In this document: piece after piece, positions 38,197-54,144 of the stretch
Position numbering within the stretch: position 1 is the first letter of the stretch
How the letters are laid out: the number at the start of each line of letters is the position of its first letter
DNA from: Escherichia coli
GTDB taxonomy: Bacteria > Pseudomonadota > Gammaproteobacteria > Enterobacterales > Enterobacteriaceae
DNA: 64,000 bases
Strand: one strand, 5' to 3'
NCBI RefSeq assembly: GCF_003334405.1
Contig: NZ_QOWM01000001.1
Notes under the pieces: model-generated
What the model was told of the DNA's origin: nothing
Database searches by the model: none
What the model saw: only the letters and a program-made list of their open reading frames with translations
Position numbers and translations under genes: made by a program

Positions 38197-39066
38197 TTAT
38201 CGCTTTTTCGAATGTGCTTTCTGGTTGTCGAACCAGTGGAAATAACTGATCACGCCTTCAGCAATCGCTGTGGCGATTTTCTGACGAAACGCCGCCGTGC
38301 CTAACAGCCGTTCTTCTTCCGGGTTGGTGATAAACGAGGTTTCCACCAGCACCGAAGGAACCGACGGTGATTTCAACACCACAAATGCCGCTTGTTCGGT
38401 GTTGCGGCTGTGCAGTTTATGCACCGGCTTAATCTTCTTCAGAATATGCGAGCCGAGCGTCAGACTATTTTTAATGGTATCTGTTTGCACCAGATCAAAC
38501 AGCACTTGTTGCAATAGGTGATCCTTGTCAGTCGCCTTTTTACCGGCAACTTCATCGGCGCGGTTTTCGCGTTCAGACAGGTATTTCGCCATTGCGCTAC
38601 TTGCCCCACGGTTAGAGAGGGCAAATACCGAAGCACCGGCAGCTTTCGGGTTGGTAAAGCCATCGGCATGAATTGACATAAACAGATCTGCGCCATGTTT
38701 ATGGGCGATTTCAACGCGATCGTAAAGTGGGATAAACGTATCGCCAGAACGCGTTAAACGCGCATCAATCCCATGATTACGCAAAATGGAACGGACGTTT
38801 TTAGCAATCGCCAGCACCACATGTTTTTCTTTCGAACCGTTGCGTCCGATCGCTCCGGTATCAATTCCGCCGTGACCTGGATCGAGAACAACGACACGTT
38901 TGCCGCCAGATTTTTTGGCTTTCGGCTTGCTGTGTCCGTTGCTGGTTTTTAAAAGTTCGTCTTTGGCGATGGCTTGCGACATTCCTGACAACGTCAGGGC
39001 AGCCAAACCGGCTTTCAGCACCTGGCGGCGCGAAGTGAGTGTTTTTAGTGGTTTAAAAGTGCTCAT
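38197..39066 (-). CDS. amiA: N-acetylmuramoyl-L-alanine amidase AmiA
   Basis: 289-aa ORF with a twin-arginine signal (SRRQVLKAG); 3 bp upstream of hemF. Confidence 0.95.
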   Translation of the reverse strand: MSTFKPLKTLTSRRQVLKAGLAALTLSGMSQAIAKDELLKTSNGHSKPKAKKSGGKRVVVLDPGHGGIDTGAIGRNGSKEKHVVLAIAKNVRSILRNHGIDARLTRSGDTFIPLYDRVEIAHKHGADLFMSIHADGFTNPKAAGASVFALSNRGASSAMAKYLSERENRADEVAGKKATDKDHLLQQVLFDLVQTDTIKNSLTLGSHILKKIKPVHKLHSRNTEQAAFVVLKSPSVPSVLVETSFITNPEEERLLGTAAFRQKIATAIAEGVISYFHWFDNQKAHSKKR

Positions 39067-39279
39067 ACGGCCTGAGTTGTAATAATAAAGTTCCAGATGT
39101 TATATCGTATCGCGTAATCCGTTACGACGGTTTGCTGTTGAGAATTGTTTTACTTTTCATTTCAATAGTTGACAACTCCCCATTATGCCACTTTTTCAAC
39201 CGATTTTCGTCAGATATTGGCTAATTCGACCGTTCACGCCATAATCAGCCTTTTAACCCGCAAAAAGGTAACGAATACC

Positions 39280-39705
39280 ATGGAGATACGCGTATTTCGC
39301 CAGGAAGATTTCGAAGAGGTCATCACCCTTTGGGAGCGTTGCGACTTGCTGCGTCCGTGGAACGATCCGGAAATGGACATCGAGCGTAAGATGAACCATG
39401 ACGTCAGTTTGTTTTTGGTCGCTGAGGTAAACGGTGACGTGGTCGGAACGGTGATGGGCGGTTATGACGGGCATCGCGGGTCTGCTTATTATCTTGGCGT
39501 GCATCCAGAGTTTCGTGGGCGTGGGATTGCCAATGCGTTGCTTAATCGGCTGGAGAAAAAGCTGATTGCTCGTGGCTGCCCGAAAATTCAGATCAATGTG
39601 CCGGAAGATAACGACATGGTGCTCGGAATGTATGAACGCCTGGGATATGAACACGCCGACGTGCTGAGTCTGGGTAAGCGTTTGATTGAAGATGAAGAGT
39701 ACTGA
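39280..39705 (+). CDS. ypeA: GNAT-family acetyltransferase YpeA
   Basis: 141-aa product [24 protein letters not shown]...; start set at the ATG matching the known N-terminus. Confidence 0.85.
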
Positions 39706-40141
39706 GTTTCATCCTGTCCATTATGATGCGCACGGTCGCCTGCGTTTACCCTTGCTCTTCTGGCTTGTGCTATTGCTTCAGGCGCGAACCTGGGTGCTGT
39801 TTGTCATTGCCGGTGCGTCGCGCGAGCAGGGTACTGCGCTGCTAAATCTGTTTTATCCCGATCACGATAATTTCTGGCTGGGGCTGATTCCTGGCATTCC
39901 GGCGGTGCTGGCGTTTTTGTTGAGCGGTCGGCGGGCTACGTTTCCTCGCACCTGGCGTGTACTCTATTTTCTGTTGCTGTTGGCGCAGGTGGTTTTACTT
40001 TGCTGGCAACCGTGGCTGTGGCTGAACGGTGAATCCGTTAGCGGTATCGGTCTGGCGCTGGTAGTGGCGGATATTGTGGCGTTAATCTGGCTGCTGACCA
40101 ATCGACGTTTACGCGCTTGTTTTAATGAAGTAAAAGAATAA
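39692..40141 (+). CDS. yfeZ: Inner membrane protein YfeZ
   Basis: 149-aa hydrophobic product [17 protein letters not shown]...; overlaps the ypeA 3' end. Confidence 0.8.
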
Positions 40142-40142
40142 C

Positions 40143-40170
40143 GGCACTTTTTGGTGAATTTGCACTCCAA
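40143..40170 (+). promoter_or_regulatory. Candidate sigma-E-type promoter upstream of yfeY
   Basis: GGCACTT, a 16-nt spacer, then TCCAA resembles the sigma-E consensus GGAACTT-N16-TCAAA; about 30 bp upstream of yfeY. Confidence 0.3.
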
Positions 40171-40201
40171 GCAACGTTATTGAATAACCAAAGGAAGTGA
40201 C

Positions 40202-40777
40202 ATGAAATCGCTGCGTTTAATGTTATGCGCTATGCCATTGATGCTGACCGGCTGTTCCACGATGTCGTCAGTTAACTGGTCTGCCGCTAACCCGTGGAAC
40301 TGGTTTGGGTCGTCCACCAAAGTGAGCGAGCAGGGCGTGGGTGAATTAACGGCGTCCACACCACTGCAAGAACAAGCCATTGCCGATGCGCTTGATGGCG
40401 ATTATCGCCTGCGCAGCGGAATGAAAACCGCGAACGGCAACGTGGTGCGCTTTTTTGAAGTGATGAAGGGCGACAACGTGGCGATGGTGATTAACGGCGA
40501 TCAAGGCACGATCAGTCGCATTGACGTGCTGGATAGCGATATTCCTGCTGACACCGGTGTTAAAATCGGTACACCGTTTAGCGACCTTTACAGCAAAGCA
40601 TTTGGCAATTGCCAAAAAGCTGATGGTGATGATAATCGTGCCGTCGAATGTAAAGCCGAAGGCAGTCAACATATTAGCTACCAGTTCAGCGGGGAATGGC
40701 GTGGTCCTGAAGGGTTAATGCCTTCGGACGATACCCTGAAAAACTGGAAAGTCAGTAAAATTATCTGGCGGCGTTAA
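40202..40777 (+). CDS. yfeY: Lipoprotein YfeY
   Basis: 191-aa ORF with a signal peptide and lipobox (LTGC). Confidence 0.8.
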   Translation: MKSLRLMLCAMPLMLTGCSTMSSVNWSAANPWNWFGSSTKVSEQGVGELTASTPLQEQAIADALDGDYRLRSGMKTANGNVVRFFEVMKGDNVAMVINGDQGTISRIDVLDSDIPADTGVKIGTPFSDLYSKAFGNCQKADGDDNRAVECKAEGSQHISYQFSGEWRGPEGLMPSDDTLKNWKVSKIIWRR

Positions 40778-40788
40778 TTTGCGTCTGA

Positions 40789-41772
<984 letters not shown>

Positions 41773-41827: not shown

Positions 41828-41975
41828 ATTGTTGACCAAGTGCGCGTTGTACACGCCGGATGCGGCGTGAACGCCTTATCCGGCCTACGAAATCGTGCTA
41901 ATTCAATATATTGTGGGCTCCACGTAGGCCTGATAAGCGTAGCGCATCAGGCAGTTTTGCGTTTGTCAGCACTCT
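41828..41975. repeat. REP/BIME cluster
   Basis: gccggatgcggcgtgaacgccttatccggcctac and gtaggcctgataagcgtagcgcatcaggc around an attcaatatattg spacer motif. Confidence 0.7.
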
Positions 41976-41978
41976 CAG

Positions 41979-42010
41979 ACCAGCCAGTAACATTACTGAC
42001 TGGCCTTTTT
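41979..42010. terminator. Hairpin plus T-run adjacent to the yfeW stop (copy B of the duplicated 28-nt element)
   Basis: gaccagccagtaacattactgactggcc followed by ttttt; 26 of 28 nt identical to copy A. Confidence 0.5.

Positions 42011-54101: not shown

Positions 54102-54144
<43 letters not shown>

Follow-up and report, generated by a model that had tools for sequence, protein, structure and literature searches.

The window analyzed here, a stretch of 64,000 nucleotides, is E. coli chromosome, and the feature under study lies in its amiA / ypeA-yfeZ-yfeY-yfeX neighbourhood. Open reading frames and annotation place amiA at 38197-39066 on the minus strand and ypeA at 39280-39705 on the plus strand; downstream of ypeA and on the same strand follow yfeZ (39692-40141, with its TAA stop codon at 40139-40141), yfeY (40202-40777) and yfeX (40873-41772), the last encoding a Dyp-type peroxidase. 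The yfeY product, identified by open reading frame, annotation and NCBIfam, is a lipoprotein of 191 aa, and its lipobox LTGC (Cys18) with Ser at +2 fits an outer-membrane lipoprotein; YfeY has also served experimentally as an outer-membrane lipoprotein in earlier work. The end of ypeA and the beginning of yfeZ share 14 nt (39692-39705), which suggests translational coupling of the two genes, and yfeZ and yfeY are separated by a gap of 60 nt. Further downstream, between yfeX and yfeW, sub-threshold Rfam matches to the REP-derived RNAs naRNA4 and ES036 (41849-42001) correspond to ordinary REP elements.

The locus is nearly uniform within the species. Many E. coli chromosomes carry the 2 kb surrounding the motif described below with 100% identity, and this DNA was found in all complete E. 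coli genomes searched (5426/5426); a 75-nt promoter region was likewise positive in 5426/5426 complete genomes, with at least 99% identity in 5125 records. Over 39067-41772 just two positions (40124 and 41452) distinguish the window from MG1655, neither of them within the core promoter. Window positions (p) were converted to MG1655 coordinates as NC_000913.3 2551216 - (p - 40202).

Upstream of yfeY, on the plus strand at 40143-40170, lies GGCACTTTTTGGTGAATTTGCACTCCAA, which consists of GGCACTT (40143-40149), a spacer of 16 nt (40150-40165) and TCCAA (40166-40170), exactly where the original prediction had placed these three parts. The first element matches the -35 consensus GGAACTT at 6/7 positions and is followed by a conserved TTT (40150-40152); the second matches the -10 consensus TCAAA at 4/5 positions and is preceded by an invariant AC (40164-40165). 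Each element thus carries one nonconsensus C (GGCACTT and TCCAA). The core promoter begins 2 nt past the yfeZ stop codon, lies 32 nt upstream of the yfeY ATG, and is fully intergenic. The earlier description of the promoter as embedded in the 3′ end of yfeZ therefore has to be corrected, since overlap with the gene is confined to an A/T-rich stretch upstream of the core (40113-40142, plus strand, 21/30 A/T), which covers the last yfeZ codons and the stop codon. This stretch is possibly an UP-like element.

These features agree with published sigma-E promoters. Rhodius 2006 gives a -35 consensus of GGAACTTTT and a -10 consensus of (T/C)GGTCAAAA, the latter of the TCAAA type, a spacer of 15-19 nt with a strong preference for 16, a discriminator of 5-6 nt, starts that are usually purines, and A/T-rich DNA upstream of the -35 element. 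The yfeY site conforms in its -35 and -10 elements, its spacer and its A/T-rich upstream DNA, and there is a purine at the predicted +1. That start, a G at 40176 (within the region 40176-40177, plus strand; NC_000913.3 2551242, minus strand), was positioned from the sigma-E geometry of Rhodius 2006 and from calibration on degP and yfeK, whose discriminators measure 5 nt and 6 nt, respectively. It would leave a 5-nt discriminator and a 5′-UTR of ~26 nt, within which the yfeY Shine-Dalgarno sequence AAAGGAA is found at 40190-40196 (plus strand; conservation of AAGGA 0.89-1.00). Taking all lines of evidence together, we assign a probability of roughly 0.93 to the reading that 40143-40170 is the sigma-E (RpoE, sigma-24) promoter of yfeY. 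It is the context of the motif that decides for this reading and not the bare match, namely a conserved motif with fixed spacing, its placement, and the regulon data.

How little the bare match says is seen in a scan of the 64-kb window for GGAACTT-N16-TCAAA with at most two mismatches (at least 10/12 bases), compared with 100 shuffles. The window contains six matches against 4.95 expected, and six or more were obtained in 38/100 shuffles, so that a consensus match of 10/12 bases, as at yfeY, is at chance level and not significant. This frequency is one of the points in favour of a chance motif, in which case upstream sigma-70 promoters would be the sole source of yfeY expression, yfeY being third in a ypeA-yfeZ-yfeY operon. 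Placement separates the six matches: three fall within long open reading frames and one has no same-strand ORF start within 1 kb, and the remaining two, at yfeY and yfeK, lie outside long open reading frames, each with a start codon on its own strand 32-34 nt downstream. Along the 1.1 kb of plus strand from amiA to the yfeY ATG, the yfeY motif is the sole site with at least 10/12 consensus bases. In position and conservation the yfeY motif is far beyond chance.

The yfeK match provides a positive control for the same scan, because it coincides with a published start. The site, GAAACTT-N16-TCAAA (54110-54137, minus strand), ends 33 nt upstream of the yfeK ATG (54076). Table S1 of Kim 2012 reports a yfeK start at 54103 with 11 reads, 6 nt past TCAAA and giving a 27-nt leader, and the 50 nt listed upstream of it are the sequence found in the scan. 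In addition, yfeK-yfeS has been reported as a sigma-E unit.

Conservation was examined in one genome per species, which yielded 79 yfeY loci; the best sigma-E-like site was sought within 140 nt upstream of each, and an alignment was made of 73 distinct sequences upstream of yfeY orthologues, drawn from three enterobacterial families. The best site is the same motif at nearly all of the 79 loci. Escherichia, Citrobacter, Salmonella, Klebsiella, Enterobacter, Raoultella, Kosakonia and Buttiauxella, among others, carry it as GGCACTT-N16-TCCAA at -58 to -62 from the ATG. In Pantoea it reads TAAACTT-N16-TCCAA and lies at about -67, in Winslowiella it reads AAAACTT-N16-TCAAA, and in Chimaeribacter GGCACTT-N16-TCCAA is found at -92. 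Among the 73 aligned sequences, ACTTTT (40146-40151) and ACTC (40164-40167) are invariant, position 40152 is conserved at 0.95, C40168, A40169 and A40170 are conserved at 0.96-1.00, and the -10 element TCCAA reaches a mean of 0.98. The spacer is 16 nt long in 73/73 sequences, a fixed length, and its sequence varies between genera: the mean top-base frequency is 0.60 in its middle (40153-40162) and likewise 0.60 in the leader. CGT at 40175-40177, which spans the predicted +1, is conserved at 0.85-0.89. When a 7-16-5 mask was moved over 85 alignment offsets, conservation was maximal at the true offset, 40143 (mean top-base frequency 0.965). An invariant motif with 16-nt spacing across three families, while the flanking DNA drifts, weighs against a chance motif in front of an operon gene.

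The core also persists where its surroundings have changed. In E. albertii, E. whittamii and two cryptic Escherichia lineages (L003, L004, L005, L075), a REP-like palindrome (CTGATAAGCGTAGCGCATCAGGC...) is found between yfeZ and the -35 element, about 60-110 nt upstream of yfeY, and the core is unchanged. Because the core is kept where REP-like DNA replaces the yfeZ end, the promoter behaves as an independent module; and because the same DNA replaces the A/T-rich stretch in these Escherichia, that stretch is not strictly required. At two loci the promoter is absent, both putative cases that depend on the assembly: in Trabulsiella odontotermitis (L065, 1665-2453) the yfeZ frame continues into yfeY, an apparent deletion or fusion, and in Citrobacter amalonaticus S646 (L006, 2400-2500) unrelated hairpin-bearing DNA lies upstream of yfeY.

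A second sigma-E-like site in the window, upstream of ypeA at 39187 (9/12), was rejected for want of conservation in its ACTT core; what is conserved around 39187 belongs to the divergent amiA/ypeA promoter region. The failure of this look-alike as a conserved sigma-E motif indicates that the footprint test discriminates, which is a further point against reading the yfeY motif as accidental. The divergent region itself (39150-39250) contains strongly conserved blocks, among them TGGCATAAT, an extended -10-like sequence on the minus strand that faces amiA. Upstream of ypeA, a conserved sigma-70-like TTGGCT-17-CATAAT lies at 39217-39245, and a promoter of this kind is what transcription of yfeY solely from the operon calls for.

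Prior knowledge of yfeY regulation points in the same direction as the footprint. The RefSeq product name of yfeY is "RpoE-regulated lipoprotein", and YfeY matches the NCBIfam equivalog of that name (NF007990) with 337 bits against a cutoff of 207. Bury-Mone et al. 2009, in their sigma-E regulon table, include yfeY-yfeX as a unit that responds to rpoE overexpression, with yfeY raised 3.3-fold and yfeX not significantly; the table flags yfeY as known from three earlier studies (Rezuchova 2003, Kabir 2005, Rhodius 2006), and, on the same authority, Kabir 2005 and Rhodius 2006 also list yfeX. Rezuchova 2003 is a two-plasmid sigma-E promoter screen, and Rhodius 2006 describes the promoters of Rezuchova et al. 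as validated. The check in sigma-E regulon datasets that had been proposed with the original prediction thus came out in its favour. ypeA and yfeZ are absent from the Bury-Mone et al. 2009 table; this bears out the proposal that yfeY has envelope-stress control independent of these two genes, and it goes against expression of yfeY solely as their operon partner. Two further datasets agree: the transcriptome table of an autotransporter-inhibitor paper has yfeY regulated alongside rpoE, rseA, rseB, rseC, yeaY and yggN, and a study of 1805 native E. coli promoters places yfeY, by promoter activity, in one group with bacA and rpoE (envelope stress).

The yfeY sigma-E promoter is almost certainly already known; yfeY is a long-established member of the regulon. 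The site appears to be the yfeYp of E. coli K-12 (b2432; Rezuchova 2003, Kabir 2005, Rhodius 2006). Gene, locus and regulon membership were compared and are the same, with no detectable difference, and we infer that 40143-40170 is identical with the published mapped promoter. A full-text literature search with the yfeY promoter sequence returned no match, yfeY does not occur in the text of Rhodius 2012 (NAR), and neither yfeY nor its coordinates were matched in the available, possibly partial, TSS and ChIP supplementary files of Cho 2014 and Ettwiller 2016.

The other check proposed earlier was to look for the yfeY start in TSS maps. The TSS-seq data of Kim 2012, from unstressed MG1655 grown in M9, contain no start at the predicted +1 (40176); yfeY is credited there with a single start of 7 reads, 230 nt upstream of the ATG and inside yfeZ (39972). 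In the same data the sigma-E starts of degP and yfeK are detected, with 13 and 11 reads, respectively. The published ypeA start in these unstressed cells is at 39116, further upstream than the sigma-70-like elements. Starts at 39116 and 39972 with none at 40176, in front of a yfeZ-yfeY gap (40142-40201) in which no terminator-like site was found, are what one would expect if yfeY were merely the third gene of an operon and the motif an accident. Set against the footprint, the regulon table and the 39187 control, that explanation is very improbable. The missing start fits a weaker sigma-E promoter with two nonconsensus bases and does not conflict with induction under stress.

The weak start at 39972 could also be taken to mean that yfeY is sigma-E regulated from elsewhere, and that the conserved blocks at 40146-40152 and 40164-40170 are, say, a transcription-factor site or an mRNA element. 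This is equally improbable in our judgment. The DNA upstream of 39972 has no AACTT/TCAAA-type sigma-E motif, the 1.1 kb upstream of yfeY on the same strand offers no other site with at least 10/12 consensus bases, and the conserved blocks coincide with those sigma-E positions that carry most information, set at the favoured distance. An RNA element in the yfeZ-yfeY gap was rejected, since an Rfam search of 40100-40210 gave no match and predicted folding of the region is no better than that of shuffled sequences (z = +1.06).

A sigma-54 promoter, with its -24 GG and -12 GC elements, was weighed as well, because GGCAC (40143-40147) and TTGCA (40160-40164) superficially resemble TGGCAC-N5-TTGCA. 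The sigma-54 consensus has a GG-to-GC distance of 11 nt. G40144 and G40162 are 18 nt apart, an excess of 7 nt, and orthologues do not share TTGCA, which falls within the variable spacer; sigma-54 is refuted on spacing and retains only a negligible probability. The claim of a sigma-E promoter for yfeY was upheld by annotation, regulon literature, consensus geometry and the phylogenetic footprint.

Among known sigma-E promoters, those of degP, yfeK and yfeY are alike in having a GGAACTT-type -35 element, a 16-nt spacer, a TCnnA-type -10 element, a discriminator of 5-6 nt, a purine start and a short leader, the start being a predicted one in the case of yfeY. The yfeY promoter differs from the other two in its conserved nonconsensus C in each element and in the lack of a detected start in unstressed cells, which suggests a lower basal strength than that of degP or yfeK. 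A different kind of parallel is offered by bamA, whose sigma-E promoter lies within or after rseP. Both bamA and yfeY have a stress-sigma promoter near the end of the preceding gene, which adds induction of their own to read-through. Unlike internal promoters of the bamA type, however, the yfeY promoter has a fully intergenic core, and only its A/T-rich upstream part overlaps yfeZ.

Under envelope stress the anti-sigma factor RseA releases sigma-E. The sigma-E holoenzyme of RNA polymerase would then bind GGCACTT and TCCAA, 16 nt apart, and transcription would begin at about G40176, yielding a short-leader mRNA for YfeY. Because the promoter follows the yfeZ stop codon, yfeY would be inducible without ypeA or yfeZ, and because the yfeZ-yfeY gap lacks a terminator, basal read-through from ypeA-yfeZ is possible. 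Part of the yfeY transcription may continue into yfeX through a 9-bp hairpin with a T-run (40831-40853, plus strand), which lies between the two genes and extends into the approach to the yfeX ribosome-binding site. The hairpin is terminator-like and probably leaky. It could serve as a leaky terminator, as a leader structure or in both roles, as yfeX transcripts start on either side of it, shortly before (40828) and shortly after (40863), the two starts being given as 45 and 10 nt upstream of yfeX in Kim 2012. The hairpin may be the reason why induction of yfeX differs between studies.

Both nonconsensus cytosines are retained across Enterobacteriaceae, and one tentative explanation is selection for a weak, high-threshold sigma-E promoter that would fire only at high sigma-E activity. 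We consider this possible, with the balance tilting against it. The lack of a detected yfeY start in unstressed cells in which degP and yfeK starts are seen would fit such selection. Also in keeping with it, three loci of the Citrobacter amalonaticus type (L014, L015, L019) have, at about -59 from the ATG, the consensus -35 element GGAACTT together with a weaker -10 element, TCCAG, possibly a compensatory pair within a single lineage. Against selection for weakness, three loci have an improved -10 element, TCAAA, with no compensating change.

The finding at yfeY is a correct rediscovery, from raw sequence, of a documented promoter, and beyond confirmation it carries little weight; the role of YfeY itself is a matter that a promoter does not address. 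It does illustrate that a call of this kind can be verified without experiments, by a cross-genus footprint with fixed spacing and a positive control, here yfeK, within the same window. Only one angle is mildly new for the biology of yfeY in these enterobacteria, the conservation of two suboptimal bases; the paired changes in one Citrobacter clade hint, on still thin evidence, that selection may act on the strength of the promoter.
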